Source: an uncultured bacterium
Lineage (GTDB): Bacteria; Eisenbacteria; RBG-16-71-46; CAIMUX01; WJJG01
Direction: 5' to 3'
DNA length: 64,000 nt
Assembly: GCA_964506245.1 (NCBI GenBank)
Contig: CAZDKK010000001.1
Span: forward strand, 289-64,288
Shown here one piece after another: positions 16,788 to 61,948 of this stretch. The position numbers and the translations under genes are program-made. Each line of letters starts with the position of its first letter. Within the stretch, counting starts at the first letter, position 1. Under the pieces are notes generated by a model that did not search any database, was not told where the DNA came from, and was given only the letters and a program-made list of their open reading frames with translations.

Positions 16788-16807
16788 ACACAGGCGGGGG
16801 GGAGGCC

Positions 16808-19800: not shown

Positions 19801-19996
19801 GTCCCCGGGGCCTGACGTCCGGAACGGCAATCCGCGGGCGCTGCACGAGGAGGTTCTGCGGCTCGAGCGACGCCTGGTGTCGGAGACGCTGACCGCGACG
19901 GGTTGGAACCGGGCCGAGACCGCCCGGCGCCTGCGCATCAGCTATCCGACGCTGCTGACCAAGATCAAGGTGTTCGGGCTGACGCCGACGCGGTGA
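16808..19996 (+). CDS. Large sigma54-dependent transcriptional activator with N-terminal TPR repeats and a GAF domain (1062 aa)
   Basis: TPR-like helical repeats over residues 40-470. A GAF-like segment, then an AAA+ sigma54-interaction domain (ILITGETGTGKGLLA, ESELFGHVAGSFTGA GAFTGA-variant, FLDEIG, RELIQVV). C-terminal Fis-type HTH (GWNRAETARRLRISYPTLLTKIK). Confidence 0.85.
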   Translation: MAEANRERNGTTRGPGAKGPHEASGAPPGGLREEMDRLVQVAELHLAADDTQAALEVLRRAEGLAVEGQADPAWTAGMKIRLADCLRGRGEFSAALEQVQQAIDLIADQGDGIVRGKALARAASLHVRLGDYASAQECASTAYELLRTTGEHAEIGTLELTLGTIHMRTGQVRRSQEFFESALFTFRRIGHREGTAKALNNLGILLKNGPRWKDALDYLRQTLAISEEMGNAGNIAMHCGNLGVLYSKMCDWKEAERALVRGISTCKEIGNSFTATCCHLAQGNLQRRRGRYARAAESYAQARQLAEQNKYGREIVLCWECEGDLLADEGKLDEARAHLERALEMARAVAPRGDLTPEIERRLAAIALRKGEAAEAERLTTRAYRGARQVGDNVEAGAALRILGDAYARQGKHAAASRVLQRAVEILGQTPDAYELALARISWGRCLGRPEAAKPHGDGHGQRLKAADQLQRAIEFFLSVELTGQAAEAVVELAEVRAGQRDLEGALRDIARGRSLAEQADRRDVIERLDRARAALETQSAEVAVLKSPEVEIIQDWSRFFSEGGADEVRLEGMLRFALERLESSRALLAAPAAPGGQPAVVAKVGLQDGQGDAILRAILPHVESRGLILAGGIAHDPRFASEAEGAFAGVRSFASLSLSLPEGKGVLYIDRRAGGSSVFGRGDLRVLSVVSGLLGLGLIQIRRERELQAQRQEREHPVRTGPLADYVTQDAEVLRVFAQLERVGDSTASILITGETGTGKGLLAQCIHRASARRDGPFITVNCAAIPETLLESELFGHVAGSFTGARADKRGLFEEAERGTLFLDEIGRTSLTVQAKLLHALDTHKIRRVGATRDHAVDVRVVCASNTDLLDAIRRGTFLEDLFYRLSDFTVHLPPLRERPGDIPLLLNSFYDRVCHELGRKPAGLDAEVRKLLLEHTWRGNIRELIQVVRRMVALSLDGERITADLLPRELLGTAAQPEPAPVRSPSPPDEGVPGWSPGPDVRNGNPRALHEEVLRLERRLVSETLTATGWNRAETARRLRISYPTLLTKIKVFGLTPTR

Positions 19997-20057: not shown

Positions 20058-22091
20058 TTACCGCACGCGGGCAGGCAAGACCGTCACGGCCAGCCCGGCC
20101 CACTGTAGGCGCCGCTCCAGGGCAAAGGCCGTCTCGTTGTGCAGGACACGCTGATACCAGCGATCGCGCTGGAAGAGGATCTTCCCCGCGAAGAAGGTCG
20201 GACGAGCGAATTCCCGTGAGATCTGCAGGCACAGCCGTTCCAGCTCGGCGACAGCGTCGGTGCCGACCGCCATCCGGTAGGTCGCCCGTACGCCCACGCC
20301 GTGGGCCAGCGCAACGTACTGCTCGAGGCTGCGACGCGTCTGGATGGTAAGCCGGTCGACCGCGTCGGCACCCTTGAAGCCGCCCGAATCGATCACGCCC
20401 ACGCCCACGAAGACGATGCCGCGGAAGTAGGTGGGGGCGAAGTTGAGGGCGCTCAGCGTCGTGTGAATCCCCAGCCCGCCGTACCCGCCGACCAGGACCA
20501 CTGCCACGGGTTCCCGGCGATTGACCTCGCCGGGGTGCTCGGTATGGGTACGCGGAATGGAGGCCAACTCCCGGAAGAGCTGATGGAGTTTGGCGCCGAC
20601 CATCTCGTAGTGACGATGAATCAAGAAGCAGAGCATGATGAGAACAGCCGCCACGGCGAGCGTGATCCAGCCACCCTCGCGGAACTTCGTGATGATCGTG
20701 ATGGCGAGGATCGTCACGCAGAAGACCAGACCCGTGAGGAACGTGGCGAACTTGTGTCTGTAGTCGTGCTGCTCACGCCGGCGAAGCGTGTCCCGCAGCA
20801 TGCCGTACATCGACAGTGTGAAGGTGAGGAAGACGTTGATGCTGTACATGACTACCAGATGTCGCACGGCACCGCCTGTATAAAGCAGTGCCACCAGCGA
20901 CATGGCGGCCATCAGGAGCACGCCGTTCTGCGTCGTCAGGCGATCTGAAAGGCTCGCGAAGCGGCGCGGCATCCAGGAGTCCAGGGCCATGTTGGCGAGA
21001 ACGCGGGGACCGCCGATGTACCCTGCCTGCGCGGCCACCAGCAAGAGTCCGCCCTCCGAGACCAGCGTCAGGATCACGAAGAGCTGCGCCAGGGGGAAGC
21101 CCGCGGCGAAGCGCTCGGCCAGCACAGCATTCATCGTCTTGCCGGGCTCGGCGCTGATGCCCCAGAGCAGGTAGCAGAGGATCAACCCACCGGCCGTGAA
21201 TGCGAGCGAGGTCGACATGTAGACCATGGTCCGTTTCCCGGTCTGGACGCGGGGCTCGCGCATGAGGGGCAGGCCGTTGGACACGGCCTCGAGACCGGTG
21301 TACGTGCCCCCACCCAAGGAATACGCGTGCAGAAACAGGAGCAGCAGACCTCCGGCGCCGAGGGTGGCCAGACCCTGCTGGAACCCGGTGTGGACATGGA
21401 CCGCGGTGGCCGGGATCTCGCCGATCCGGATCACGATGCCGCCGACGATGAGGATCAGATGGGTCGCGACGAAGAGCACGAAGATCGGCAGCAGCGTCAT
21501 CACCGATTCCTTGACGCCGCGCAGGTTGAGGAGGGCCAACCCCAGGATGAGCAGGACTTCGGAGGGCAGCTTCCAGATGTTCCAGCCGACCGGCATGAAG
21601 CTGAAGAGCGCATCCCCTGCTGCGGCGATCGAGACCGTAATGGTGAGGACGTAGTCGACGAGCAGCGCGCAGCCCGATACGACGCCTGTTCGGGGACCGA
21701 GGAGCTTGCTGGCGACGAGGTACCCGCCGCCGCCGTGAGGGAAGGCCTCGATGATGTATCGGTACGCCCCGGAGATGACGAAGATCGTGACCGCGGTCAA
21801 CACCGCTAGTCCCACGGCTAGATAGGTGTGCTGACCCAGGGAGTGGAAGGCTTCGGAAGGTCCGTAGGACGACGAAGAAAGACCGTCTGCACCCAGCCCG
21901 ACCCAGGCCAGGAGCGCGACGAGCGAGAGGTGATGGAAGAGCGAGCGGTCCCGCAGATCCCGCGGAGCACCCAGAATCAGCCGCCAGGCGCGCTGAAGGG
22001 CCGAGGGTCGTTCCTCGGGCTCGAGGTCGGGCGGCGGATTGGGGATCGGGGGCAAGGTTGGGCCGGGCCCACCGGCCCCGTGGCCGGACAT
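20058..22091 (-). CDS. APC-superfamily amino acid/polyamine permease with an extra cytoplasmic C-terminal domain of about 170 aa
   Basis: Twelve predicted TM helices with an APC-like pattern (GGGYLVASKLLG...), followed by a soluble C-terminal domain. GGAGG RBS before the ATG at 22091. Confidence 0.8.
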   Translation of the reverse strand: MSGHGAGGPGPTLPPIPNPPPDLEPEERPSALQRAWRLILGAPRDLRDRSLFHHLSLVALLAWVGLGADGLSSSSYGPSEAFHSLGQHTYLAVGLAVLTAVTIFVISGAYRYIIEAFPHGGGGYLVASKLLGPRTGVVSGCALLVDYVLTITVSIAAAGDALFSFMPVGWNIWKLPSEVLLILGLALLNLRGVKESVMTLLPIFVLFVATHLILIVGGIVIRIGEIPATAVHVHTGFQQGLATLGAGGLLLLFLHAYSLGGGTYTGLEAVSNGLPLMREPRVQTGKRTMVYMSTSLAFTAGGLILCYLLWGISAEPGKTMNAVLAERFAAGFPLAQLFVILTLVSEGGLLLVAAQAGYIGGPRVLANMALDSWMPRRFASLSDRLTTQNGVLLMAAMSLVALLYTGGAVRHLVVMYSINVFLTFTLSMYGMLRDTLRRREQHDYRHKFATFLTGLVFCVTILAITIITKFREGGWITLAVAAVLIMLCFLIHRHYEMVGAKLHQLFRELASIPRTHTEHPGEVNRREPVAVVLVGGYGGLGIHTTLSALNFAPTYFRGIVFVGVGVIDSGGFKGADAVDRLTIQTRRSLEQYVALAHGVGVRATYRMAVGTDAVAELERLCLQISREFARPTFFAGKILFQRDRWYQRVLHNETAFALERRLQWAGLAVTVLPARVR

Positions 22092-22331
22092 GTCACAAAC
22101 CTCCGCGCTTCTGCCACTCGAGGAAGGCCCCGTGCGTGTCGCGCGGCAGCGCTTCCCTTCGACGCCTGCGAGGTTAGCTGACGGACTCGGGCCGAAGAGA
22201 CTGCCCTACGCCTTGCGGCGATGCGCCCCGAGACTGGTTCCCCCGCTCCCGCCCCCGGCGAGATTCAGCGATAGCGGGCCAAAGGGTAGCTCGGCCAGAC
22301 GAGCACGGGCAAGGGCATTCTGGTTGGGCTG

Positions 22332-30229: not shown

Positions 30230-30246
30230 AGGAACGATACTTGCAC
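30230..30246 (+). promoter_or_regulatory. Candidate sigma54 (-24/-12) promoter upstream of the octad-repeat protein gene
   Basis: aGGaACG-N4-TTGCA, with the GG and GC elements 12 nt apart as in the consensus TGGCACG-N4-TTGCA. The -12 element TTGCA is perfect. It lies about 85 nt upstream of the ATG at 30332. A receiver-less sigma54 EBP gene is adjacent. Confidence 0.35.
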
Positions 30247-30994: not shown

Positions 30995-32251
30995 TCATTC
31001 CTTGCGCTCGATGACCTCGGACAGCCTCAGCAGGTCTTCCCGATAGGCCTGGGGCAGCTTGGCGAACGCCTTGCGCAGCGCGATCATCCGCCTTCCAGGA
31101 CTGTTCCCACCGCGCTCCCAAGCGCGGATCGCCACGCGCAGTGTCTGCCCCAATTTGCGCTGCACCAGCGGAGCCAGAGACGGATCACCGGCCAGGCCGA
31201 GGGCCGCAGCCTCCAGGTTGCCGCGCTCCGCGGCGAGTGCGCGGAATCCCTCGCCCGCCAGGTAGTAGGTCAGACCGCTCCGGGAACAGACTGGAACGCT
31301 GCGCCGGGGAGAGGTGCGCCGTCGAGCGGTAAGCATGCGTTCTGCCAGCGCGATGTTGAAGTGGTACACGCGCAGCTGCTCGATCACCCAGGCACCGACC
31401 TCGCTGCCGGGCTGGAGGCGGGGGGAGCTGGCCAACCCATCACTTGGTGGAGCGTCCGAGAGCCGGTGGCGCGCGAAGACGGCGGAGACGTGCCGATCGT
31501 GGATCTCCTGGCCGCGCGCTTCAATGAGCAGCGCGCTCACGATGTTTTGAAGCTCGCGCACGTTCCCTGGATAGGCGTAGGCGAACAGGCGGCGCAGCGC
31601 AGCCGGATGGACGGGCGGGCAGGGCCCCCCGAGCTGCGCCGATCGTTCTCTGAGGAAGTGGTTGATCAACAGAGGAAGGTCTTCCCGCCGTTCGCGGAGC
31701 GGCGGCAGATGCAGCGGAAAGACGGCCAGACGGTAGTAGAGGTCACGCCGAAACTCCCCATTGCGAACCGCCCGTTCCAGGCTGCGATTGGTCGCGGCCA
31801 CCACACGCGCCTCGGTCTTGAGCTGTCGCTCCCCACCGACCGGCAGAAAGACGCCGTCCTGCAACACGCGCAGGAGACGGACCTGCGCGGAGGGAGACAT
31901 CTCGGCAATCTCATCCAGGAAGACGGTTCCGTGACCTGCGCGCTCGAACAGCCCCCGATGGGCGCGCACCGCGCCCGTGAAAGCCCCGGGCACGTGGCCG
32001 AAGAGTTCGCTCTCCAGCAGAGACTCGGGAATCGCCCCGCAGTTGATGGTCTCGAAAGGCTGCCGGTCGCCGCAGGAGATCTCGTGCACAATCGTCGCGA
32101 TCAGCTCCTTGCCCGTTCCCGACTCGCCTTCCAGCAGTACGGGGCAGTGCACCGCGGCTACCTTCGCGACATCCTCGAGAACCGCGCGAATGACCGCGCT
32201 CTCTCCCACACAGCGGAGAAACGCCGGATGTTGCGTCTCGCTCGGGGCCAT
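30995..32251 (-). CDS. Sigma54-dependent transcriptional activator lacking a receiver/sensor N-domain (AAA+ domain plus C-terminal DNA-binding region)
   Basis: ATG at 32251 (MAPSETQHPAF). Motifs LLEGESGTGKELIA, ESELFGHVPGAFTGA (GAFTGA), FLDEIA, RELQNIV. Putative Fis-like HTH, then an extra C-terminal region of about 90 aa. Confidence 0.85.
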   Translation of the reverse strand: MAPSETQHPAFLRCVGESAVIRAVLEDVAKVAAVHCPVLLEGESGTGKELIATIVHEISCGDRQPFETINCGAIPESLLESELFGHVPGAFTGAVRAHRGLFERAGHGTVFLDEIAEMSPSAQVRLLRVLQDGVFLPVGGERQLKTEARVVAATNRSLERAVRNGEFRRDLYYRLAVFPLHLPPLRERREDLPLLINHFLRERSAQLGGPCPPVHPAALRRLFAYAYPGNVRELQNIVSALLIEARGQEIHDRHVSAVFARHRLSDAPPSDGLASSPRLQPGSEVGAWVIEQLRVYHFNIALAERMLTARRRTSPRRSVPVCSRSGLTYYLAGEGFRALAAERGNLEAAALGLAGDPSLAPLVQRKLGQTLRVAIRAWERGGNSPGRRMIALRKAFAKLPQAYREDLLRLSEVIERKE

Positions 32252-32400
32252 GGGGTGCGTGACCCCCCATCTGTCTCTCGGTAACCGCGCAGCCGCCACG
32301 CTGTCACGTCGGCCACGGTCGGGAGCCGCAACCTCCGTCGAGGTCACCGTCCCGTTTGCGGAGCCCGCCGGTCGATCGCGGGCCGTGAGGAAATGCCGCG

Positions 32401-33216
32401 ATGCGTTTCCGCGCTGCGAGGACCAAGCCGCAGTGGGCGTTCCTGCTGTCCCTGGGCCTGCTGGCGGCATCATCGCCGGCGCCCGCGCAGTCAAGCGCGG
32501 CGCCGGCGGACACGGATGGCGATCCGAGCCTCTCCGCCGATTCGCGCATCTTTCCCGGCATCCTGCTGCCGGCCAGCACAGCCCTGATCAAGGCCCCGCG
32601 CGACGAGAGGATCGCATCGGTCGCGGTCCACGTCGGTGACGTCGTGAGGAAGGGACAACTCCTGATCGAGCTGGTGGCCGACGAAGAACGCGTGACCCAA
32701 GGACGCGCAGCGGCGGTGCTCGAGCAGGCGCGGGACGAGCTCGACCGCGTGCGGCGGCTGTCCGCGGAACACCTGACCTCCGACGAGGCCCTCGAGGTGG
32801 CCGAGACCGCCTACCGGATCGCGCGCGCCGATCACGAGCTGGACTCGCTGCGCTACGCGGAATCCTCGATCCGGGCCCCCTTCGACGGCGTGGTCGCGGA
32901 GCTCCGCGTGGACCCTGGAACATCGGTCGAGACCGGTGACAACCTGGTGCGCGTTGCCTCCAGGTCGCTGCTGCGCCTGGAGGTTCTGCTCCCCGAGGAG
33001 ATGCTGCCAGCCTTCACCGTCGCGACGGTGGTGGAGGTGCAGCCCACCCATCCCGACACGACGCTCCACTTGCCGGTGTACGCACGTCCGCTGGTGGTGG
33101 ACCCGAGCAGCGGCACGTTTACGCTGGAGATCGAGGTCCCCAACAAGGCTGGGCGCCTGATTCCTGGTGTAAGCTGCCAGGTGAGCGTGCGAACAGCGTC
33201 GGGCGATGCACCGTGA
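32401..33216 (+). CDS. Short periplasmic HlyD-family membrane-fusion/adaptor protein (biotin-lipoyl-like plus beta-barrel)
   Basis: Signal peptide. Lipoyl-like hairpin motifs (ILLPASTALIKAPRDERIASVAVHVGDVVRKGQLLIEL... IRAPFDGVVAELRVDPGTSVETGDNLVRVAS). TGA overlaps the GTG of the next gene. Confidence 0.75.
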   Translation: MRFRAARTKPQWAFLLSLGLLAASSPAPAQSSAAPADTDGDPSLSADSRIFPGILLPASTALIKAPRDERIASVAVHVGDVVRKGQLLIELVADEERVTQGRAAAVLEQARDELDRVRRLSAEHLTSDEALEVAETAYRIARADHELDSLRYAESSIRAPFDGVVAELRVDPGTSVETGDNLVRVASRSLLRLEVLLPEEMLPAFTVATVVEVQPTHPDTTLHLPVYARPLVVDPSSGTFTLEIEVPNKAGRLIPGVSCQVSVRTASGDAP

Positions 33217-43460: not shown

Positions 43461-43693
43461 CCCACCGGGCCGGGGCGGGCAGCGCCGTGACGCCACGGGG
43501 CGCGGCGGGCGGTTCTGTCCCGCCGGGTCGCTCGATCTCCCCACGAGTCCGAGGATCTCGTGATATCATTGTCCCCGGCCCGGTTGCCCAATCGAGCCGC
43601 CGGCGGCAGCGGAACGCCGCCGGCCGTGACGGCCTCACTGCCCGGTGACCGAGATGGGTCGCGCCGGCGGTGACCGCTCTGCAGGAGGTGTGC

Positions 43694-46687
43694 ATGCGTC
43701 TCTGGAACGGCAACATCCCGCGCTCCCCGCTCTCATCGGCTCCCTCACGCGCCACGACCGCCGCCAGCCTCGTGCTGTGGACGACCCTGGCCCTGGCCAC
43801 GCTGGCCGCCCTGGCCGCCCAGCCCGCGGCCGCCGGCGCGGCCCGGCCCCTGGCCGGCGACGAGCCCGTGGGGATCCGCGTCGACAACATCTCGACCGGT
43901 GAGATCGAGCGGCTCGAGCAAGAAGGCTTCGACGTCGCCTTCCGCGGCGCCGACTACGTCGAGCTGCTCGCGCGGCCGGGGGACACCGGGCGCCTGGAAC
44001 GCATGGGCTACACCTGGAGGCTTCTCGGGCGTGACCTCTTCCCGGGTGCTCGCTCGGTGAGTGACGAGGGCAACCTGGATCCGCAGTATCACACCTACCA
44101 GGAGATGCTCGACGAACTGACGCTGCTCGCGACCACGCACCCGAACATCTGCCAGATGTACGAGATTGGCGACGCCGAGAGTCGCATCTGGTGGTGGGAC
44201 AACTACACCTACCAGTACGACATCTGGGCCGTGCGCATCTCGGACAATCCGAGCATCGATGAGCCGGAGCCGTGCATCGTCTACGATGGCCGGCATCACG
44301 CGCGCGAGCCGGTGGGGACGGAGATCTCCCTCGCCGTGGCGCGCTACTTCTGCGAGAACTACGGGGTCGACCCCGAGATCACACAGGTCGTGAATTCCAG
44401 CGAGATCTGGGTCGTGCCGATGATCAACCCCGACGGGCACCAGTGGGTGGAGAGCGTCGATCCCTGGTGGCGCAAGAACCTCTTCGATCATGACACCGAC
44501 CACCATGTCGATGACTATGAGGGCATCGATCTCAACCGCAACTACGACTGGCACTGGGAAGCCGGGAGCTGGAACAGCGAGACCTATGGTGGGCCCTACG
44601 CATTCCGTGCGCCCGAGACCACAGCCCTGCGCGACCTGTGCCTCGAGCACCGACCGGCGATCAATCCAACGTACCACAGCTACGGGCGGCAGGTCCTCTA
44701 TCCGTTCGGCTACGGCGTGCTCGCCGAGCCGGCCGTGCTCGACATCGCCACCGAGTATGCTGGGCGCATCTCCTATACGCCCATGCAATCGACCACCCCG
44801 ACAGGATCTTCCAAAGACTATTTCTACGGCGTCATCGGCACGGCCGGCTTCACGGTGGAGACGGCCACCGACTTCATCCCCAGCGGCACGTCGATGCTCG
44901 CCGAAGTGCAGCAGCTCCTGCCGGGCAGCATCTGGCTGGCGAAGCGGCTGTGGGGCCCGTCGATCCAGGGCACGGTGACCGACTCGATCGCGGGCATCCC
45001 GCTCGCGGCGACCATCCATATCCCGGAAATCATGGAGGTCTATGGCCAAGGCGAGCTGTGGGACATGCAGACCGAGGCTTCGACCGGCTACTACTGCCGC
45101 GTGCGCCCGGCGGCCCAGCAGACGATCACCCTCATGGTCAGCGCGGACGGCTACTTCGGCAAGACCGTGCGGGTGACGACGGGCGGCACGACCGCGACGG
45201 TGTTGAACATTCAGCTCGTGCCTGAGAGCTTCGACCGCGGCATCGTGCAGGGCACGGTGACCAACGCGACGGCGGGTGGCGCCCCGGTGCCCAATGCGAC
45301 GGTCACCGTGATCGGCGCGGGCGTGAGCGTGCCGACCAACGCCAGCGGCTTCTACAGCGGCTATGTGGCCCCGGGCAGCTATCGCTTGGCGGTCCACCAC
45401 GAGAGCTTCGCGCCCGACACCTCGGACTACGTCCCGGTTGTGATCGGGGAGATCACGACGGTCGACTTCTCGCTCGTCGATATCGCCGGGCCGGCGATCA
45501 CCAACACGACGCAGTACCCGAACACCGAGGACCCCGTCGGGCCCTACGAGATCGAAACCACGATCACGGACATGAGCCCGCTGGCCGAGAAGACGCTCTT
45601 CTACCGCGTGGGCACGCAGCCGTTCCAGGCCCTGCCGATGGCGTCAGTCGGCCTGAATCGCTTCCAGGCGGACATCCCCGGCCAGCCCCTCGGGTCAGTG
45701 ATCCAGTACTACGTGTTCGCGACAGACCTGGGCGGCAACCAGTCGGCGGATCCGCCCGAGGCGCCGTCCGAGCTCTACATGTTCCGCGTGTCGCCGTTCG
45801 TGGTGGTCTTCGAGGATGCGATGGAGACCGGTCAGGGCAACTGGTTGCACGCCGCGGTGACCAGCGGCTATGTCGACCAGTGGCACATCTCGACCCAGCG
45901 CAACCACACCCCGGGCGGGACGACGAGCTGGAAGTGCGGCGCGGCCGGCACGGGCACCTACGCCAACCTCCTCGACGGCGGGCTCGAGTCGCCCAGTTTC
46001 ACACTGGGTGAATCCGGCGAGCTGACGCTGTGGCACTGGATCGAGGCCGAGGCCAGCAGCTCCTATCCGACCCAGGCCTACGACGGCGGCCTGGTAGAGA
46101 TCTCCGTCGAGGGCGGCCCGTGGACACAGATCGTGCCCGAGGGCGGCTACACGCACACGATCCGCGCCAGCAGCCAACCGGGCCCGTTCCCGGCCGGCAC
46201 CCCCATCTTCTCGGGCGCGATCACCTGGAACGAGGTTACCTTCGACCTGTCGGCCTACGAGAATGTGGAGGCGCGCGTCCGCTTCCGCTTCGGCAGCGAC
46301 GGCAACACCGGCCGCGAGGGGTGGTACATCGACGACGTGCTGGTCCGTTCGATGAATCCCGCGTCCGGCGTCGAGGAACAACCGCTCTCCCTGGCGCCGC
46401 TGCGCTGCACACGGCTCCTCTGCAGCCCGAGCCCGTGCCTGGCCGGCGTCGGCGCGGGTGTGCGCTACGAACTGAGCCGTCCGGCCCCGGTCGTGGTGCG
46501 CGTCTTCGATGCCGCCGGCCGCCAGGTGTCGGTCCTGACCGCCGGGCAGGCGCAGGCCGCAGGATCGATCTGGTGGGACGGCCGCGATGCCGCCGGCCGC
46601 CCGGTGGGTTCGGGCATGTACCTCCTGCGGCTCGACGCCGCCGGGCAGAGCCTGATCGGCCGCAAGGTGATGCTGCTGGCGAGGTAG
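43694..46687 (+). CDS. Secreted M14 zinc carboxypeptidase with carboxypeptidase-regulatory-like domains and a T9SS/Por-type C-terminal sorting domain
   Basis: Signal peptide. M14 motifs (HAREPVG..., INPDGHQW, GTAGFTVE). CarbopepD_reg-like beta-sandwich repeats (GTVTDSIAGIPLAA..., GTVTNATAGGAPVPNATVTV). C-terminal roughly 75 aa (VRVFDAAGRQVSVL...GMYLLRLDAAGQSLIGRKVMLL) typical of the FlgD-Ig/T9SS CTD. Confidence 0.85.
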   Translation: MRLWNGNIPRSPLSSAPSRATTAASLVLWTTLALATLAALAAQPAAAGAARPLAGDEPVGIRVDNISTGEIERLEQEGFDVAFRGADYVELLARPGDTGRLERMGYTWRLLGRDLFPGARSVSDEGNLDPQYHTYQEMLDELTLLATTHPNICQMYEIGDAESRIWWWDNYTYQYDIWAVRISDNPSIDEPEPCIVYDGRHHAREPVGTEISLAVARYFCENYGVDPEITQVVNSSEIWVVPMINPDGHQWVESVDPWWRKNLFDHDTDHHVDDYEGIDLNRNYDWHWEAGSWNSETYGGPYAFRAPETTALRDLCLEHRPAINPTYHSYGRQVLYPFGYGVLAEPAVLDIATEYAGRISYTPMQSTTPTGSSKDYFYGVIGTAGFTVETATDFIPSGTSMLAEVQQLLPGSIWLAKRLWGPSIQGTVTDSIAGIPLAATIHIPEIMEVYGQGELWDMQTEASTGYYCRVRPAAQQTITLMVSADGYFGKTVRVTTGGTTATVLNIQLVPESFDRGIVQGTVTNATAGGAPVPNATVTVIGAGVSVPTNASGFYSGYVAPGSYRLAVHHESFAPDTSDYVPVVIGEITTVDFSLVDIAGPAITNTTQYPNTEDPVGPYEIETTITDMSPLAEKTLFYRVGTQPFQALPMASVGLNRFQADIPGQPLGSVIQYYVFATDLGGNQSADPPEAPSELYMFRVSPFVVVFEDAMETGQGNWLHAAVTSGYVDQWHISTQRNHTPGGTTSWKCGAAGTGTYANLLDGGLESPSFTLGESGELTLWHWIEAEASSSYPTQAYDGGLVEISVEGGPWTQIVPEGGYTHTIRASSQPGPFPAGTPIFSGAITWNEVTFDLSAYENVEARVRFRFGSDGNTGREGWYIDDVLVRSMNPASGVEEQPLSLAPLRCTRLLCSPSPCLAGVGAGVRYELSRPAPVVVRVFDAAGRQVSVLTAGQAQAAGSIWWDGRDAAGRPVGSGMYLLRLDAAGQSLIGRKVMLLAR

Positions 46688-46701: not shown

Positions 46702-48801
46702 ATGGGCGACCGCGACAGCCGCAAGGATGCGTCCCCGCGGGTTCCGCCGGATGAGACCCGGCGACGGGGCGTCACCATAGCCGCCGTGCTGATCTGCGCC
46801 GTGGTGGGCCTCGCCTTCAGCAACAGTTTCGGCGGCGTGTTCGTGCTCGACGACCTGCCGAACATCGTCCGCAATCCGGCCATCCGCACCCTGTGGCCGC
46901 CGTGGCGAGCGCTTGCCAATCCCCCGCTCGGCTTGAACGGCCGTCCGCTGGTCACGCTCACGCTGGCCCTCAACTACGCCGTGAGCGGCGAGCAGGCCTG
47001 GAGCTACCACGTCCTCAATCTTCTGATCCACATCCTCGCCGCGCTCACGCTGATGGGGATCCTGCGGCGAACCCTGCTCATGCCCCGCCTGCACGCCGGC
47101 TTCGGAGGGGCCGCGACGCCGCTGGCCGCGATCGCAGCGGTGATCTGGGCGGTGCATCCGCTGCAGACCCAAGCCATCACCTACGTCATCCAACGCTGTG
47201 AATCGCTGATGGGCCTCTTCTTCCTGCTCACGCTCTACGCGGCGATCCGCGGCTGGCAGTCACCCGCACCGCGGCGCTGGCACGCGGCGGCCATCGCGGC
47301 CTTCCTGGCCGGTGCCGGCAGCAAGGAGGTCATCGCCGCCGCCCCGCCGCTGGTCTTCCTCTATGATCTGCTCTTCGTGCACGAACGTCCGCGCGAGGCC
47401 CTGCGCGGCTCGCGCGCGTTGTACGCCGGGCTCCTGATCGGCCTGGTCCTGCTCGCGGTACAGGTGGTCGCGTCCAGCATGAGCACGCTCGGACTCGAGC
47501 GGCTGTCGATCACTTCGGCCGAGTATGCCCGCACCCAGCCAGAGGTCATCCTGCACTACCTGCGCCTGGCGATCTGGCCGCACCCGCTGGTGCTCGACTA
47601 CCAGTGGCCGATCGCCCGGCCCGCCGCGGCCATCGTGCCCGGCACGATCCTGCTCGTGCTCCTGGGCGCAACCGCCTGGGCTTGCTGGCGGCGGCGTCCG
47701 CTCGGATATCCGGGTGCGTGGTTCTTCCTCATCCTCGCGCCCAGCTCGAGCGTGATCCCGATCCGCGATCTGGCCTTCGAGCACCGGATGTACCTGCCCC
47801 TGGCCAGCGTGGTCGTGCTGGCAGTGGTTGGGGCCTACGCCCTGGCGCGGCGACGGGCGCGCGTCGGGATGGCGGGAGCGCTGGTGGTCGTCACGGTGCT
47901 GGGTTTCCTGACGTTCGACCGCAACCGCGACTACCGGAGCGAGCTGACGATCTGGACCGATACGGTTGCAAAGCGGCCCCTCAACGCCGGTGCGCATCTG
48001 AACCTGGGTGCGGCGCTCGACGCGGCCGGACGCACGCGGGAAGCGCGGGAGCATACCGAGCGGGCCGCGCGGCTCAACCCCGCGTCGGCCCTGGCCCGCA
48101 ACAACCTCGGGTGCATGTTGGCGGGGGAGGGCGACCTGGCCGGGGCAGCGACGCAGCTCGAGGAAGCGACGCGCCTGGATCCCACCTACGCCGAGGCGCA
48201 GTACAACCTGGGCAACGTGCTGCACGGGTTGCGGCGCTTCGCGGAAGCGGAGGCGCACTATCGCCGCGCGCTGGAGCTTCAGCCAGGCTACTTCGCCGCG
48301 CAGCGCAGCCTGGGCCGAACGCTGCAAGCGACCGGGAAGCTGGCGGAGGCCGCGGAGAGCTACCGCCTGGCCCTGCGGATGAATCCGCGAGACGCCGAGG
48401 TCCACCACGACCTGGGGGGCGTCCTCCTCGGAGGCGGGCGACTGGACGAGGCCCTGGCGAGTTTTCGCGAGGCGGCGCGCCTGAAGCCCGATTGGCTGGC
48501 GCCGCAGAACGCCATCGCCTGGATCTTGGCGACCCACCCCGATCCCGACCGCCGCGATCCGGCCGCCGCCGTGCGGATGGCCGAGCAGCTGGCGGCGCGG
48601 ACCGGGCAACAGAACTCGGGGGTGCTCGACACGCTGGCCGCGGCCTATGCCGCCGCCGGACGATTCACCGACGCGATCAGAACCGCAGAGCAGGCCCTGG
48701 CGGTCCTCAACGCGCGCGGGCCGGAGGGCCCGGCCCGCGAGATCGAGCAGCGGCTGGCCCTCTATCGGCAGGGCCAGCCGTTCGTATGTGCGATGCGCTA
48801 G
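46702..48801 (+). CDS. TMTC-like membrane protein: N-terminal multi-TM (DUF1736/PMT-like) domain plus C-terminal TPR repeats; putative protein O-mannosyl/glycosyl-transferase-like
   Basis: ATG at 46702 in frame with ORF 46030..48801 (residue 225 of that ORF). About 10 TM helices followed by 6 or more TPRs (NAGAHLNLGAALDAAGRTREAREHTERAARLNP...). Confidence 0.75.
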   Translation: MGDRDSRKDASPRVPPDETRRRGVTIAAVLICAVVGLAFSNSFGGVFVLDDLPNIVRNPAIRTLWPPWRALANPPLGLNGRPLVTLTLALNYAVSGEQAWSYHVLNLLIHILAALTLMGILRRTLLMPRLHAGFGGAATPLAAIAAVIWAVHPLQTQAITYVIQRCESLMGLFFLLTLYAAIRGWQSPAPRRWHAAAIAAFLAGAGSKEVIAAAPPLVFLYDLLFVHERPREALRGSRALYAGLLIGLVLLAVQVVASSMSTLGLERLSITSAEYARTQPEVILHYLRLAIWPHPLVLDYQWPIARPAAAIVPGTILLVLLGATAWACWRRRPLGYPGAWFFLILAPSSSVIPIRDLAFEHRMYLPLASVVVLAVVGAYALARRRARVGMAGALVVVTVLGFLTFDRNRDYRSELTIWTDTVAKRPLNAGAHLNLGAALDAAGRTREAREHTERAARLNPASALARNNLGCMLAGEGDLAGAATQLEEATRLDPTYAEAQYNLGNVLHGLRRFAEAEAHYRRALELQPGYFAAQRSLGRTLQATGKLAEAAESYRLALRMNPRDAEVHHDLGGVLLGGGRLDEALASFREAARLKPDWLAPQNAIAWILATHPDPDRRDPAAAVRMAEQLAARTGQQNSGVLDTLAAAYAAAGRFTDAIRTAEQALAVLNARGPEGPAREIEQRLALYRQGQPFVCAMR

Positions 48802-49517
48802 CCCCGGCGGCGCCTGAAGAGCGCGAGCCCGGAACCGGCGAGAGCCAGACCCAGCAGGGCCACTGACGAAGGCTCGGGGACGTCATCGGGGGGGCCCAGC
48901 AGGTCCTGGTCGCCCTCCCAGTCCCAGTACGTGGCCACGTCCTGGCCGCGATCGTCCAGGTACTGGGCCACGAAGCCGTCGTAGAAGCCCTCTGCCGTGT
49001 AGCCGAAGTAGGAGATGTTGTCCAGACCGAGAACCTTGAAGTTGCCCGCGGTCAGGTCCCAGCCAGTCCTGCGGCCGCCGTCGTAGATCGCTTCCCACAC
49101 GGAGATCTGCAACGCCGCGCGGCTCAGCTTGTCTTCCACGGTGTTCTGGTTGTACAGCGGCACGCCATACTTGTTGTAGAGGTACGCCGCCCAGTCCAGC
49201 CCTGCCTGCGAGATGCCCGAGGCCATCGCACTCGATGGAACCTCGTTGGTCGGATAGACGTTCCAGTAGCGAGGATGGCCGTACATCCCGGTCCCGATGT
49301 CCAGGCAGTAGAAATCAGCCCAGTACGTTCCCGAGGCGTCGTACCCCTGCCACGACCCGAAGCTGTAGTTGAGCAGGTTCGTGGAGTTGACGGAGAAGTC
49401 GCCCACCAGGACGTTGTAGTTGTAGGAGAACTCCGGGTCCATGTAGACGACGGAGGCTCCGGACGCCGCCGGCAGGCAGAGTGCCACCGCTGCCATCGCC
49501 AATAACCATCTCAGCAT
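48798..49517 (-). CDS. PEP-CTERM sorting-domain protein (exosortase substrate)
   Basis: N-terminal signal peptide (ATG at 49517; the ORF-track start is a TTG 7 codons upstream). The C-terminus is VPEPSSVALLGLALAGSGLALFRRRRG, i.e. the PEP motif plus a TM plus an Arg cluster. Confidence 0.8.
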   Translation of the reverse strand: MLRWLLAMAAVALCLPAASGASVVYMDPEFSYNYNVLVGDFSVNSTNLLNYSFGSWQGYDASGTYWADFYCLDIGTGMYGHPRYWNVYPTNEVPSSAMASGISQAGLDWAAYLYNKYGVPLYNQNTVEDKLSRAALQISVWEAIYDGGRRTGWDLTAGNFKVLGLDNISYFGYTAEGFYDGFVAQYLDDRGQDVATYWDWEGDQDLLGPPDDVPEPSSVALLGLALAGSGLALFRRRRG

Positions 49518-49690
49518 GGTCGCAACCCCCAGTCTCAAAGGTGTCCCTTGCCGTCATGCGATTCCCTGCTGGATGCCGGGGCATCGGCAGGGCATCTATG
49601 AAGCGACCTCGGGCGGGCCACGGGGGTCCTCCGAGGTAACGCATGTAAACTATACACCATAAGTATACGCATGTCAAGTTTGTCGTGGAA

Positions 49691-49798
49691 CGAGGATTGG
49701 TGAGGATCACAGTGTAAATGATTACAAAACATTCATTTAGGCAGACAGGTTGTCATGCCAGCGGACGTGGGCTGTGAGTCCCGGAGGGTTCGCAAGGC
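49691..49798. other. Conserved intergenic element, copy A (about 108 nt); candidate cis-regulatory element or small structured RNA
   Basis: About 80% identical over two conserved arms to 59720..59828 (acgaggattgNtgaggat...gtaaatg / gtcatgcca...gg.tg.ga..cccggagggttcgcaaggc). It lies in an unusually AT-rich intergenic island. Confidence 0.4.
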
Positions 49799-49871
49799 AG
49801 CCGGGGGGGTCACCAATCTTCGCACCACAGCCTGGGAAGAAGTGCGGCAGGTCACCGTAAGTCATTTTCAT

Positions 49872-51041
49872 TCAAATAATTGTGCGCTCAAGAGCCATCC
49901 CGGGCCACCACTCCCTCAGGCGGGCCAGGAAGCTCTCCGCCTGCCCGTCAGCAGTGTACCCCTTGAGGACCGTCGCGCGGGCCTGCTCCGCCTCCCGGAC
50001 CCAGGCGGCCGGGTCGGCGACGAGCGCCTCCACTGCGTCGGCCAGAGCCTCGGGCGACGCGGCCCGGGCGGCGATCACCCCGCTGCCGCGGGGGAACGAG
50101 GTGGGGACGGCTGGGACGGGGGGACCGTCGCAGACCACGACGGGGCAGCCGCAGGCCAGCGCCTCGAGCACCGCCATGCTGAGGCCCTCGGACCGGCTGG
50201 GGTGAAGGAGCACATGGCTGGCGGCGACGGCGCGGCGCAGCTCTTCGGGTGGCAACAGGCCTCGGAAGACAACTGCATCCGGTCCAGCGCCTGCCCGCGC
50301 CCGGCCCTCGAGCTGCGGCCGCTCGGGGCCGTCGCCGCAGACATCGAGGCGCGCTGCCATCCCGCGCGCGCGCAGGGTGACCAGGGCATCGAGCGCGAGG
50401 TCGGCACGCTTGCGGTCGGTCAGCACGCCGGCGAAGCACAGGCGCAGCGCGTCACGAGCGGGGGGGAGACGCCCCGGGTCTGGTCGCCACACGTCCAGGT
50501 CGACCCCGTTCGGCACGACCACGGCCGCGCGGGCCGCGCGGCCGCAGAGCGGGAGCCGGGCGAGGAGGGCGCGCAACTCCTCGGTGACACAGACCAGGTG
50601 ATCCGCGGCCAATGCCGTGCCCACAGCGCGCCACGCGCCCGGCCCGCGCAGCTCCTCGGTAGGGCCGTGCACGTACCCGATCACTGCGCCCCACGGGCGC
50701 AGCGAGCGCAGCGCACCCAGCACGGGGAAGAGCCGCAGGCCGTGGAAGACCACGAGGCCATGGGTGCCGGCCCGGGCCGCCAGGCGGCGGGCCGCGCTCA
50801 GATAGGCGTCCGGCCGCGGGCCGGGACGCTTGGCCACGTACTCCCAGGCGACGGAGTGCTCCTCGAGCACCCGCAGGTAGGTGGGTCGCGGATCGGGCAC
50901 GCCGTAGAGGACCGCTGTCTGCGGAAGCCGTCCAGCCAGACGGCATGCCAGGTTCACGGCCACGGCGCTGGCGCCGGAGGGTCCGCTGTAGAAGCAGTGC
51001 ACGAGATCGCCTGCTGCGCGCGCAGTCGCGCCGTTCCCCAT
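49872..51041 (-). CDS. GT4-family glycosyltransferase
   Basis: ATG at 51041 (MGNGATARAAGDLVHCFYSG...). Motif HPSRSEGLSMAVLEALACGCPVVVCD. Confidence 0.8.
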   Translation of the reverse strand: MGNGATARAAGDLVHCFYSGPSGASAVAVNLACRLAGRLPQTAVLYGVPDPRPTYLRVLEEHSVAWEYVAKRPGPRPDAYLSAARRLAARAGTHGLVVFHGLRLFPVLGALRSLRPWGAVIGYVHGPTEELRGPGAWRAVGTALAADHLVCVTEELRALLARLPLCGRAARAAVVVPNGVDLDVWRPDPGRLPPARDALRLCFAGVLTDRKRADLALDALVTLRARGMAARLDVCGDGPERPQLEGRARAGAGPDAVVFRGLLPPEELRRAVAASHVLLHPSRSEGLSMAVLEALACGCPVVVCDGPPVPAVPTSFPRGSGVIAARAASPEALADAVEALVADPAAWVREAEQARATVLKGYTADGQAESFLARLREWWPGMALERTII

Positions 51042-51176
51042 GGTTTGCTCCACGATCTGATTATGCACGCGCGCAGTACGAAAGGGAATGCGCACCGGCA
51101 TCGGGGAATGCTATGACTGTCCGGGCCGAGGATTCCGGAAGAGATCGGCTGGCGTGAGGATCACGGTGGAGGGGGC

Positions 51177-57473: not shown

Positions 57474-59297
57474 TCAGAGCTTGAACTGCGCCACCGCGTC
57501 CCTCAATGCCGTGGCCGTCTGCTGCAGCACCTCGGTCCGCGCACTCGCCCGTGAGGCCTCGGTCACCGCCTCGCGCGCCGCGTCGCTCACTTCGTGGATG
57601 TTCTTCGTCACGTTGCCCACGCCAAGGGAGATCTGCTGGACGTTTGCAGCGATATCGACGGCCGCGCTCGACACGCTCCCCACGCTCGCGGCGATTTCGT
57701 TGGTGGTGACGGACTGCTCCTCGACCGCCGTGGCGATGGCCTGGGTGATCTGTCGCACGTCACGGATGATCCCCGCAATCTCCTGAATCGCGTTGACCGC
57801 TTCGCCGGCATTGGTCTGCATCTCGGTGATCTCTCGGCCGATCTCCTCGGTCGCCACCGCCGTCTCCCGCGCCAGGGCCTTGACCTCGCTGGCCACGACC
57901 GCGAAGCCCTTGCCCGCCTCACCGGCCGAGGCCGCCTCGATCGTCGCGTTCAGGGCGAGCAGATTGGTCTGGTCCGCGATCTGATCGATCGTGTCGAGGA
58001 TCTTCCCGATCTGCTGGGACGAGGAGCTGAGCCGCTCCATCGCTTCCCCGGTCGACTGCGCCTTGCCATCGGCCCGGGCTGCAACCTCGGCGGCTTGCAC
58101 GCAGTTGTGCGCGACCTCGCCCAGGGAGCTGCTCATCTCCTCGATGGCGGTTGCCACGCTGCGCACGGCCGTGGACGTCTCCTCCGCGCCGGCCGACACG
58201 TGGATGACGCTGGAGGAGATCTGTTCAGCCGCGGCCGCCACGCCGCTGGCTTGCTCGAGCATCTTGCCCGCGTTGGTTGCCAGCCCGCTGGCCCGACCCG
58301 ACACTTCATCTGCCGACTCGCCTACTGTGCGGCTGTGGTCCCGCAGCTCGGTGATCATCGCGTGCAGCCGCTGCAGGAACCCATTGCAGTTCCCGGCCAG
58401 TTGTCCGACCTCGTCGTTCCCGCCGGCCGGCAGCCGGGCAGTCAGATCATTCCCCTTGGTGATCTCCGACAGCATCTCCGTCGCCACGCGCACCGGGCGG
58501 ACAACACACCGCGTGGCAATGCCGACCACGAGCAGGACAAGCATCGTCGTCCCCACCATGATGGCCAAGATCGTGCCGATGAGCGTGCGCGCGGCCCCGC
58601 GCTCCTCCGCCGCGAGCAGCTCGACCTCGGCATCCACGAAGTCCACGTATTCGCCCGTGCCGATGACCCAGCTGCGCGCTGGGTAGAGCTTCACAACGGA
58701 GATCTTCGGGTATCCTTCCTCGGTCACACCGCCGTCGGACTTTGGCTTCGGCCAGTAGTAGCTCACCACGCCGTCGCCCTTCTCCACGCACACCTCGTTC
58801 ATGCGCACGAAGAGGTTGGTCTCGGGGATGTGAGCCACTTGCGGATCGCTGCGATCGAAGATGCGGCCGCGATATTGGATCTTCTGGAATCGCTCCCTGT
58901 CCCGGAAGTCCGAGACCTCGGTTCCGTTCAGATTCGGCATGGTCGGATGCATGACCATGACCGGCCGCTCCGGGTGCTCTCGGTCCAGCTGGTGAATCCA
59001 GATGTAGGAGGCATTCGTGGTGAGCGCGGCCACACGTTCGAGACATTCCTCCGTCGTCAGACGGTTGCGGTCACAGACACGCACCGTGGCGATCGCTTGA
59101 TCGACCAGCGCACTCAGACGATCCTTGACGGCTGCGATCTGCTGCTCACGGATCCGCTCCAGGCGACCTGCCGTCTGGCGGGCATTGAGCATCGAGATGC
59201 CCAGCGTGGTGGCCGCCATGCTGAACAACAGCGGGATGGTGACCGCGTAGAGAAGTCGGGTAGCGATGGAGTGCTGAACCTGGCGGGAACCGAACAT
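57474..59297 (-). CDS. Methyl-accepting chemotaxis protein with a periplasmic Cache-type ligand-binding domain
   Basis: ATG at 59297 with a GGAGG RBS. TM1, a periplasmic domain of about 250 aa, TM2, HAMP, and the MA signalling domain with methylation heptads ([14 protein letters not shown]..., highly conserved tip region [17 protein letters not shown]... [33 protein letters not shown]). Confidence 0.85.
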
Positions 59298-59719
59298 GAG
59301 AGGACCTCCTTTGGCACAATGCAGACGGGCTGCACACGTCCTCTCCCGGACCGCCGAGGCATGACAGGCACGAATCGCGCGTTCACGGGACGCACTCGGG
59401 CAGGAACCTGCGATCCCTGTAGGAAGCATCGGCTTGGCGTCCATATCCTTGATCAATCACGCGGGAGACGAAAACCGATGGACGGATTCAAGCATATGGA
59501 AACGTGTACAGAACAAGCGCGCGGATGTGTAAAAGTGTTTGCCAGAGATATCGAGATTGGGGTTCGGCAGCAGTGCCATGGAACCCAGTCGGGGCGGGAC
59601 TGGGCCTGTTTTTCAGGTTTGTGTGTAAGCATGTCGCGATGATAGGTGGCTGCTTTCTGCGGTCCGGGAGGGTGCGCCCGCGCGCGCGCGTGCTGTCTGC
59701 GGCTGCGTTGGTTGGGAAA

Positions 59720-59828
59720 CGAGGATTGCTGAGGATTGCACGGTAAATGTTTGCAGAGTAGATGGTTAGCCAATTCGCGTGTCATGCCAACACGCCTGGG
59801 ATGCGAAGTCCCGGAGGGTTCGCAAGGC
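59720..59828. other. Conserved intergenic element, copy B (about 109 nt)
   Basis: See copy A. It lies between the divergent MCP gene and the CBM/T9SS gene. A perfect TGGCAC hexamer sits about 45 nt downstream. Confidence 0.4.
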
Positions 59829-60013
59829 GCCGACGCGGCGGACCGGCGCGTGCCCACCAAGCCCCAGTCGCGTGGCACTCCCGCCGTGGGCGGCCCGGCA
59901 GCCGCAGGGCGAGCCTATTCTCACTCCGGCCCTGCTGCGCTATACTCCGGACAGCCCACCGCGTCAGCTGTGCATCTCGCGTGCACCCCCCCCACCCGAA
60001 GGGGGCTGTCGTC

Positions 60014-60637: not shown

Positions 60638-61948
60638 GTGTCGCTCACTTGCGCGTTTCCGGTGCCGGTCCTCAGGGTGATCGACCTCGTCGTGCTGGAC
60701 ACCCCGGGCAACGGCTACCTCGACCCCGGGGAATCCACGGGGCTGGTGACGGTGCTCAAGAACTTCGGGGCGAGCGCGGTCGGGGTCACGGCTGACCTTG
60801 AGACGGGGGATCCCTATGTCAGCGTCACGCAGGCGAGCGGTTTCTTTGGTGACATGGCCGAGGGCGCGGTGCTGGACAGCATGGCCCAGCCCTTCAGATT
60901 GAGCGCGTCGGCTGGCACACCCGAGGGACACGCCGCCGTTCTGGAGCTGACCGCTCACTTCGCCGGCGGGATGACGACGTCGGCGTTCACGTTGTGCGTG
61001 GGCGACTTCGATTACCTCGTGTGGGAGCACTCCACGGACGAGTCGAGCGGGCCCGTGTTGCATTGCACCCTCGCCTCGCAGGGGTACAATGGCGACCTGA
61101 CGACGATTCTCCCGCTGCGGGGACTTGAACGCTACCGGGCTTTGTTCGTGTCCTGCGGCATGTACTCGGAGAACTTCGCGATCAACCGTAGCTCCCCCCA
61201 GGCCCTGGCGCTGTTGGACTACCTTGCTGCCGGCGGTGGGCTCTATCTCGAGGGGGGAGATGTCTGGTGCCTGGATTCGCTGGCAACCGGTCATGATTTC
61301 GGCCCCGCCTTCGGGATCGCGAGCTACGACGGCGGCTCGGGCATGCTCCCGCTGATCGGTGTCGACGGTGTGCAAGGTACCTTCACGCAGGGGATGACCT
61401 TTGAGTATGTCGGTCACAACTTCCACGTCGATCAGCTCCAGTCCGTTGGTCCGGCATTCACGCTGCTTTCGGATCCCTATGTTCAGATCGATGTGGGCGT
61501 GGCCCGGAACGATGGGATGGGCGCGAGCGTGGGCACCTCGTTCGAATTCGCGGGTCTGGCGGACGGCGCGCCACCGTCGACCAAGGCAGAGCTGGCGCGG
61601 GCACTGATGGGGTTTCTGACCGCGGGAGGGGCTCAGGACCTCCCTGACGGGGGCGGAGCGGACGGACCGACCGAGCCGGCCGGGCCCGGCGTGCGGCTGT
61701 GCGAGGTCAGGCCGAACCCTTGGGGCGGACAAGCGACGCTGCAGTGTGCGCTACCACGGGCTGGTGGGATTCGGGCGGACCTCTTCGATTCCGCGGGCAG
61801 ATGCGTGGCGAGCGTGGTGAGGAAGCACCTGACAGCGGGGAACCACGCGTTGGAGTTGAGTCGCGGCGGGCTGCCTGCGGGGACGTACTGGATCCGACTG
61901 CAGACTGGCGGTGAGGTGATCGTGGGCAAATGCACGATCGTACGCTGA
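60638..61948 (+). CDS. C-terminal part of the interrupted gene: beta-rich domains ending in a T9SS/Por-type C-terminal sorting domain (no signal peptide of its own)
   Basis: Same frame as 60014..60601. It ends with a CTD (VRLCEVRPNPWGGQATLQCAL...GTYWIRLQTGGEVIVGKCTIVR) resembling that of the M14 carboxypeptidase. It lacks an N-terminal signal peptide, which suggests it is not an independent gene. Confidence 0.55.
   Translation: MSLTCAFPVPVLRVIDLVVLDTPGNGYLDPGESTGLVTVLKNFGASAVGVTADLETGDPYVSVTQASGFFGDMAEGAVLDSMAQPFRLSASAGTPEGHAAVLELTAHFAGGMTTSAFTLCVGDFDYLVWEHSTDESSGPVLHCTLASQGYNGDLTTILPLRGLERYRALFVSCGMYSENFAINRSSPQALALLDYLAAGGGLYLEGGDVWCLDSLATGHDFGPAFGIASYDGGSGMLPLIGVDGVQGTFTQGMTFEYVGHNFHVDQLQSVGPAFTLLSDPYVQIDVGVARNDGMGASVGTSFEFAGLADGAPPSTKAELARALMGFLTAGGAQDLPDGGGADGPTEPAGPGVRLCEVRPNPWGGQATLQCALPRAGGIRADLFDSAGRCVASVVRKHLTAGNHALELSRGGLPAGTYWIRLQTGGEVIVGKCTIVR

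Follow-up and report, generated by a model that had tools for sequence, protein, structure and literature searches.

A non-coding intergenic element of about 110 bases occurs twice, on the same strand (+) and 10 kb apart, in the 64,000-nt stretch of DNA from an uncultured bacterium of the phylum Eisenbacteria that was analysed here (the window). The question raised by this locus is what the element is: a pair of RNA genes, a protein-binding DNA site, a mobile repeat, or a remnant that does nothing. An earlier note, made from the sequence alone, had placed both copies upstream of genes for secreted or surface proteins and had proposed an orientation-independent enhancer for sigma54 enhancer-binding proteins (EBPs) or, alternatively, a small RNA.

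Anatomy of the two copies

Block alignment recovered both copies on the + strand at the positions reported before, each with two arms around a variable segment (Table 1). The colinear blocks common to copies A and B are AACGAGGATTGnTGAGGAT, GTAAATG, TGTCATGCCA and an exact 22-nt block. The spacing from arm 1 to TGTCATGCCA is the same in both copies (offset 10029), and the change of offset from 10029 to 10030 corresponds to a single 1-nt indel ahead of the 22-mer AGTCCCGGAGGGTTCGCAAGGC. From centre to centre, arm 1 and arm 2 lie ~82 bp apart in both copies. The GAGGAT direct repeat described for the first arm is present in both copies and has a 10-bp period in copy A (49692-49697 and 49702-49707). 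A 13-mer, CGARGATTGSTGA, occurs three times within the element and is absent from the rest of the window and from all fetched loci; it covers the GAGGAT tandem repeat of arm 1 and recurs inverted at 49810-49822. The arm-2 dyad reads TGTGAG-N10-TTCGCA in copy A versus TGCGAA-N11-TTCGCA in copy B.

Table 1. Coordinates of the two copies, their parts and the neighbouring features in the window.
Feature	Position	Strand	Remark
PEP-CTERM protein gene	48798-49517	-	Pfam
PEP-CTERM promoter, TTGACA-17-TATAGT	49649-49677	-	near-consensus sigma70; outside the element
Copy A	49685-49798	+	block alignment
Copy A arm 1	49685-49721	+	GAGGAT direct repeat, GTAAATG, sigma54-like string TGGAACGAGGATTGGT at 49686-49701
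Copy A-only hairpin, TAAATGA-N11-TCATTTA	49715-49739		perfect inverted repeat
Copy A middle, poorly conserved	49722-49750	+	contains 3' half of the copy A-only hairpin
Copy A arm-2 hairpin	49748-49802	+	includes TGTCATGCCA and the exact 22-mer
Inverted arm-1 motif, CGAAGATTGGTGA	49810-49828	-	closes copy A as a 144-bp unit
GT4 glycosyltransferase gene	49872-51101	-	Pfam
MCP gene	57474-59297	-	Pfam; ATG 59297 after Shine-Dalgarno sequence AAAGGAGG
Copy B	59714-59828	+	block alignment
Copy B arm 1	59714-59750	+	GAGGAT at 59721-59726 and 59731-59736, then GTAAATG
Copy B middle, poorly conserved	59751-59779	+	length equal to copy A middle
Copy B arm-2 hairpin	59775-59833	+	TGTCATGCCA, dyad TGCGAA-N11-TTCGCA, exact 22-mer
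Promoter of the 60014 gene, TTCTCA-17-TATACT	59918-59946	+	sigma70-type; outside the element; conserved in relative L028
Secreted protein gene, 195 aa	60014-60601	+	no Pfam domain
Gene for protein with weak T9SS tail	60638-61948		Pfam
Block AACGAGGATTG	A 49689-49699 / B 59718-59728		offset +10029
Block TGAGGAT	A 49701-49707 / B 59730-59736		offset +10029
Block GTAAATG	A 49714-49720 / B 59743-59749		offset +10029
Block TGTCATGCCA	A 49751-49760 / B 59780-59789		offset +10029
Exact 22-mer AGTCCCGGAGGGTTCGCAAGGC	A 49777-49798 / B 59807-59828		offset +10030

Several smaller features noted before were also found again. The perfect inverted repeat TAAATGA-N11-TCATTTA lies in copy A as described, the nearby direct repeat is ACGCATGT, present twice (49639-49646 and 49667-49674), and the copies do sit in AT-rich islands, where GC falls to 40-53% versus about 70%. 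A Logan assembly contig from run SRR12133403 is identical to the copy A region over 800/800 positions, so the sequence is not an artefact of the MAG assembly.

The extent given for copy A was real as a span, but the true unit is larger, since a 19-nt inverted repeat (49685-49703 / 49810-49828; 16/19 complementary, a value reached in 0/300 shuffles) encloses the copy. A 156-nt unit of copy A folds into a three-way junction, the z-score being -3.1 for the + strand and -3.4 for the - strand. For copy B, no good right-hand partner of the inverted repeat was found (best alignment score 12-14, near chance, versus 26 for copy A), nor does its extended fold stand out (z +0.3). These features bring to mind a MITE-like dispersed repeat comparable to ERIC, Correia or RUP elements: a non-autonomous unit of ~145 bp with ~19-bp terminal inverted repeats that has reached intergenic sites by spreading or by recombination, with copy A intact and the right end of copy B lost or degraded. 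Under this reading, which we regard as doubtful though possible, effects on the neighbours would be incidental (UTR structure, protein sites) and GTGGAACGAGGATTGGTGA-like ends would occur on a related IS element. The inverted repeat and the stable fold of copy A speak for it, as do the small size and the non-coding, intergenic nature of the element. Against it stand the unconvincing right end of copy B, although its internal blocks are perfect, and the lack of a target-site duplication at copy A, whose flanks (...tttgtc and agcctg...) share no direct repeat.

Block-wise conservation

The two copies are identical at 83/115 alignment columns (72%), and in the middle segment of ~30 nt at 13/29 (45%). 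The mismatches are unevenly distributed, with significant clustering in permutation tests (P 0.002-0.009): the longest stretch of identity spans 22 columns (P 0.009), and the variance of identity in ten-column windows is also unusual (P 0.0016). The clustering, with the 22-nt run, the variance and the 13/29 middle, suggests that the blocks have been under selection in A as well as in B. In 100 shuffled versions of the window, the 21-mer core was never matched by chance, and blastn inside the window matched arm 2 with E 1.6e-8 and arm 1 with E 0.002. Searches with nhmmer profiles and with the covariance model R1 returned just these two copies in the 64-kb window.

This pattern bears on the simplest account, in which the element has no function and is what remains of an old short duplication or of a recombination junction, its blocks having been kept by chance or gene conversion. 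Just two copies are known, and no promoter, terminator, homologue or known family can be attached to them, as would suit such a remnant. However, block-wise conservation, a near-saturated middle and fixed spacing indicate that the blocks have been maintained in both copies, a combination improbable under neutral decay (P 0.002-0.009), and the substitutions in predicted stems keep pairing (see below). We consider a remnant very unlikely. The block-wise rather than uniform divergence also weighs against the MITE-like repeat.

Other explanations for the duplication were tried and rejected. No reading frame is common to the two copies in small-ORF readings of A and B, since the 1-nt indel shifts the frame inside an invariant block, which rules out a conserved small ORF. 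A wider segmental duplication is ruled out because the flanks of the copies have nothing in common by blastn, and no paralogous neighbouring proteins were found around them. The template and variable repeats of a diversity-generating retroelement are excluded as well: Pfam finds no RT domain between or around the copies, and the mismatches involve all four bases.

Predicted RNA structure and strand

Both RNAfold and RNAalifold predict that arm 2 forms an irregular hairpin of ~55 nt on the + strand, with an invariant loop and 3' strand. The RNAalifold consensus has 23 pairs and -17.8 kcal/mol on the + strand versus 9 pairs and -9.2 on the - strand, and four G.U pairs of copy A become A.C mismatches if the other strand is read. 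In copy A, the arm-2 pairing is GGUUGUC.UGC.AGC...GGG/CCC...GUU.GCA.GGCAGCC; the consensus pairs are GUC/GGC, UGC/GCA, ARC/GUU and GGG/CCC. Among the variable positions of the hairpin, 8 are in loops and 4 in stems, and all of the latter still pair through changes of U.G to G-C, U-A to U.G and G.U to A-U (1 compensatory, 2 one-sided). Over the 23 consensus pairs, 1 compensatory and 4 one-sided changes and 0 broken pairs were counted. Two sequences permit no covariation statistic, and the fold was itself obtained from this pair. The base of the arm-2 stem runs into non-conserved flanks that differ in sequence between the copies. The z-scores of the core fold are unremarkable (-1.4 and +0.07), and the fold of the whole element differs, copy A closing via the downstream inverted repeat that is absent from copy B.

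A local stem proposed before, UGYGAR/UUCGCA together with CCC-GGA-GGG, can form, but it excludes the consensus fold and is less stable, by 1.5 kcal/mol in copy A and 8.8 in copy B. The asymmetry between strands, the substitutions that preserve pairing and the 1-nt change in dyad spacing, which an RNA bulge would tolerate better than a dimeric DNA site, together favour an RNA over a double-stranded DNA site. The small-RNA alternative of the earlier note remains viable and is slightly strengthened by the + strand fold and the retained stem pairing.

A consensus scan limited to one promoter type recognised no + strand sigma70 promoter in arm 1, and sigma28, ECF and extended -10 readings of arm 1 gave no consistent match by eye. 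Downstream of copy B, a scan revealed no intrinsic terminator, and downstream of copy A just a weak, 5-bp terminator-like hairpin at 49843-49869. Arm 2 itself is excluded as an intrinsic terminator, having no U tract. A cis-acting leader or riboswitch is also ruled out, since copy A, read on the + strand, runs towards the 3' end of the glycosyltransferase gene, which is convergent with it (stop 49872); only copy B has a + strand gene downstream.

Neighbouring genes, promoters and the sigma54 question

Copy A lies between the stop codon of the glycosyltransferase gene and the start of the PEP-CTERM gene, and copy B in a 716-nt intergenic region, 421 nt from the MCP start (ATG 59297). Pfam confirmed the PEP-CTERM, MCP and T9SS-tail neighbours. 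The gene right after copy B, which had been described as a CBM/T9SS gene, has neither a CBM nor any other Pfam domain, the T9SS tail belonging to the next gene, and the distance from copy B to the downstream ATG, given as ~165 nt, was measured at 186 nt. The similar distances of the two copies to their genes, on which the enhancer proposal had been built, were taken from opposite ends of the element. Read in reverse, each copy precedes a minus-strand gene, PEP-CTERM for copy A and MCP for copy B, and the orientation of the element relative to the gene is then the same in both cases. Neither nhmmer nor the covariance model found a copy near another T9SS-type cargo gene in the window (43670-46687), and with the relatives' orthologues also lacking the element (see below), the link to genes for secreted or surface proteins rests on two cases.

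The flanking promoters are of the sigma70 type. A gap of 7 bp separates the -35 hexamer of the PEP-CTERM promoter from copy A, whose left end is at 49685. The octamer ACATGCGT (in the minus-strand reading) occurs twice at 49639-49677, once over this -35 hexamer and once over the predicted start, and the pair may represent operator sites. Copy B lies 90 bp upstream of the + strand promoter TTCTCA-17-TATACT. In the upstream region of the MCP gene, a good intrinsic-terminator-like hairpin of 7 bp (5 GC) followed by CCTGTTTTTC was observed at 59584-59613 (+), with no + strand gene before it; a small or antisense RNA made opposite the MCP leader could terminate here.

Some features resemble a sigma54 promoter with its upstream activating site (UAS), namely the arm-2 dyad of copy B, the similarity of arm 1 to the promoter consensus and the presence of EBP genes in the window. 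The differences are the broken near-invariant positions, the sigma70-type flanking promoters and the frequency of pattern matches, which across the window is below chance (78 versus 95 expected). Against TGGCACG-N4-TTGCW, arm 1 has 2 mismatches in copy A and 3 in copy B; the near-invariant -12 C is a G in copy A and the -24 G an A in copy B, and the sole variable base of arm 1 falls on the -12 C position. Near the copies, no GG-N10-GC promoter with intact GG and GC was found apart from arm 1, which is defective in each copy; an enhancer would call for such a promoter at 80-200 bp, ahead of the gene under its control. A sigma54 promoter in arm 1 or arm 2 is therefore ruled out by a broken invariant position in each copy, and a UAS with fixed half-site spacing fails on the arm-2 dyad spacing of 10 nt in A versus 11 nt in B. 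With sigma70-type flanking promoters, no valid sigma54 promoter nearby and no element at the relatives' orthologues, the orientation-independent enhancer is not supported. The EBP genes of the window lie at 16634-19996 (+) and 30995-32494 (-), one of them fused to TPR repeats, and a well-formed sigma54-like site, AGGAACGATACTTGCA, is found at 30230-30245 (+), ~750 bp from the end of the EBP ORF at 30995-32494.

A broader DNA-level reading assumes a double-stranded regulatory module in which one factor binds CGARGATTGSTGA and a second protein the arm-2 dyad, jointly controlling the adjacent promoters. The 10-bp period of the direct repeat suits tandem-binding regulators, the three occurrences of the 13-mer are confined to the element within the window, arm 2 of copy B contains the dyad TGCGAA-N11-TTCGCA, and the centres of the two arms keep their spacing of ~82 bp; moreover, a near-consensus promoter has its -35 hexamer ~15-30 bp downstream of arm 1 of copy A, and two sigma54 EBP genes are encoded in the window. 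The geometry, however, is unequal, with copy A abutting a -35 hexamer and copy B separated from the putative MCP promoter by ~160 bp and from the + strand promoter by 90 bp, the latter facing the opposite end of the element. The dyad of copy A differs in half-site and spacing, there is no valid sigma54 promoter close by, blocks of 22 + 10 + 20 nt exceed typical operator needs, and neither the relatives' orthologues nor the other cargo gene of the window carries the element. We judge such a module rather unlikely.

Loci of relatives and gene order

Judging by the names of homologues, the bacterium stands close to Candidatus Eisenbacteria and Krumholzibacteria. Four syntenic loci from relatives were obtained via the NapC/NirT cytochrome (76, 74, 70 and 65% identity), as well as MCP-orthologue loci from three relatives (60-58% identity). 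In these 4 syntenic and 3 MCP loci, which comprise ~200 kb of the relatives' DNA, neither nhmmer nor the covariance model R1 detected the element, and it is absent from the orthologous PEP-CTERM, secreted-protein and MCP genes. The gene order in the closest relative (L028) is PEP-CTERM / gamma-PGA hydrolase / DMT_6 / GT ... DinB / secreted protein / T9SS protein, indicating that the window genome is without two genes at the site of copy A and has an extra MCP gene and a long intergenic region at copy B. Both copies thus sit exactly where the gene order departs from that of the relatives. For the MITE-like repeat, these changes of gene order (two genes gone at A, the MCP gene moved in at B) and the element-free orthologous intergenic regions of four relatives are favourable evidence; a functionless remnant would likewise be at home at such rearrangement junctions.

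The promoter of the 60014-gene orthologue is recognisable in L028, where it lies ~60 bp from dinB with no element. Its conservation in an element-free locus places copy B outside the ancestral control region of that gene. The alignable part (ATTCT..-N-CTGCGCTATACT) is found at 59918-59946 in the window and at 13880-13915 in L028, and the remaining intergenic DNA is unalignable. The MCP orthologues (L038-L041, three relatives) have the conserved order DUF502 or scramblase / MCP / M24 peptidase / flavodoxin_2. The MCP gene of the window is situated between dinB and the secreted-protein gene, unlike the neighbourhood of its orthologues, so it has been translocated. Upstream of the MCP orthologues, the sigma28 -10-like sequences GCCGATAG, GGCGATAG or GTCGATAT occur, and the window has CTCGATAT at 59555-59548 (-).

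Searches for further copies and known families

No match to the element was obtained with Rfam 15 at the gathering threshold in the window, and permissive Rfam scans of both copy regions gave only noise (E 2.3-9.5). The only match at the gathering threshold in the window is a c-di-AMP (ydaO/yuaA) riboswitch at 22148-22280 (-), which scores 86.6 bits over the full-length model and is positioned at the 5' end of an ORF for an amino-acid-permease-type transporter (20058-22205, -). ARAGORN found no tRNA or tmRNA in the window, which rules out a tRNA-derived att site or tRNA-like element, and the element does not qualify as an attC site.

An exact 18-mer had 20 matches in 185,579 species genomes, all unrelated and compared with ~17 expected by chance, and an exact 19-mer had 5, all unrelated, in 241 million metagenome contigs; both collections evidently lack the source genome itself, whose proteins were found only in short Logan contigs. 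Among viral contigs, arm 2 had no match and arm 1 a single chance match in a coding region, and blastn against plasmids and phages returned nothing. The earlier note had counted a lack of additional copies elsewhere against its proposal, and no additional copy was found in any of the collections, the relatives' loci or the 64-kb window searched. The absence of copies from the public collections scanned, and of a transposase or third copy from the 64-kb window, also counts against the MITE-like repeat. As none of the collections searched yielded a further copy, any function assigned to the element is an informed guess.

The 18-mer CCCGGAGGGTTCGCAAGG is also part of a multi-copy alphaproteobacterial unit (L002, L004, L007, L012, L014-L017 and L019), which lies 60-200 nt downstream of a tRNA gene in the 7 loci where Rfam finds one. 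In Mesorhizobium (L007), the CCCGGAGGGTTCGCAAGG units are 113 nt long, arranged in tandem and terminated by a tRNA-3'-like end, ...GGGTTCGATCC..GCACCA. The unit has nothing else in common with the element, and this match, which involves a GAACCC-GGA-GGGTTC hairpin, is taken to be a coincidence.

A pair of small structured RNAs as the preferred reading

We tentatively prefer, at less than even probability, to read copies A and B as paralogous, lineage-specific genes for small structured RNAs expressed from the + strand. A divergent centre between conserved ends is the pattern of paralogous sRNAs such as OmrA/OmrB. In such an RNA, arm 2 would be the functional core, an irregular hairpin of ~55 nt with an invariant loop and 3' strand, and arm 1 would serve as a promoter or control region, or as a 5' domain. 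The GAGGAT repeat of arm 1 might be the site of a tandem-binding activator that takes the place of a -35 element, ~9 bp upstream of a putative weak -10, which reads AATGAT in copy A and AATGTT in copy B. In that case, the transcript would begin within the variable middle and extend through the arm-2 hairpin. We infer transcription, the assignment of the promoter and any target or effect on neighbouring genes from the sequence. Confidence in the small-RNA reading is low because neither promoter nor terminator is demonstrable, the global fold is not shared and two sequences give no statistics.

Compared with OmrA/OmrB and the multi-copy Qrr sRNAs, the element is alike in having two intergenic non-coding copies of the same length with near-identical terminal blocks and a variable middle, a direct-repeat motif as a possible activator site, and envelope and motility neighbours. 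It differs in showing no sequence or Rfam similarity to them and no clear promoter or U-tract terminator, and in having its copies 10 kb from each other and not side by side. A similar comparison with ERIC/IRU, Correia and RUP repeats finds agreement in the size of 110-145 bp, the non-coding, intergenic and promoter-adjacent nature, the presence or absence among related genomes and, for copy A, the ~19-bp terminal inverted repeats and long-stem fold, and disagreement in the missing target-site duplication, the lack of a right inverted repeat in copy B, the mere two copies seen and the block-wise conservation. The element is most like paralogous sRNAs with conserved ends (OmrA/OmrB) or ERIC- and Correia-type repeats, but it fits neither definition in full, and for now it is best regarded as a small intergenic repeat or candidate sRNA that belongs to no established class.

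Implications for Eisenbacteria

New in this analysis are the inverted repeat around copy A, the + strand bias of the fold and the sigma70-type flanking promoters. A more ambitious proposal, speculative and improbable as a whole, is that copies A and B are the first members of a new structured sRNA family of Eisenbacteria/Krumholzibacteria-like bacteria, in which a tandem-repeat-binding activator would drive expression through arm 1, while the invariant arm-2 hairpin would bind a protein or an mRNA and thereby coordinate genes for the envelope or surface proteins with chemotaxis genes. The element, which is duplicated, conserved in blocks at fixed spacing, asymmetric between strands in its fold and absent from relatives, is real and non-random, belongs to one genome as far as seen, and constitutes a well-defined candidate rather than a discovery. 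We know of no regulatory RNA or repeat family reported so far from the uncultured phylum Eisenbacteria. If confirmed, an sRNA family or a mobile repeat would provide the first handle on gene regulation or genome plasticity in this phylum.
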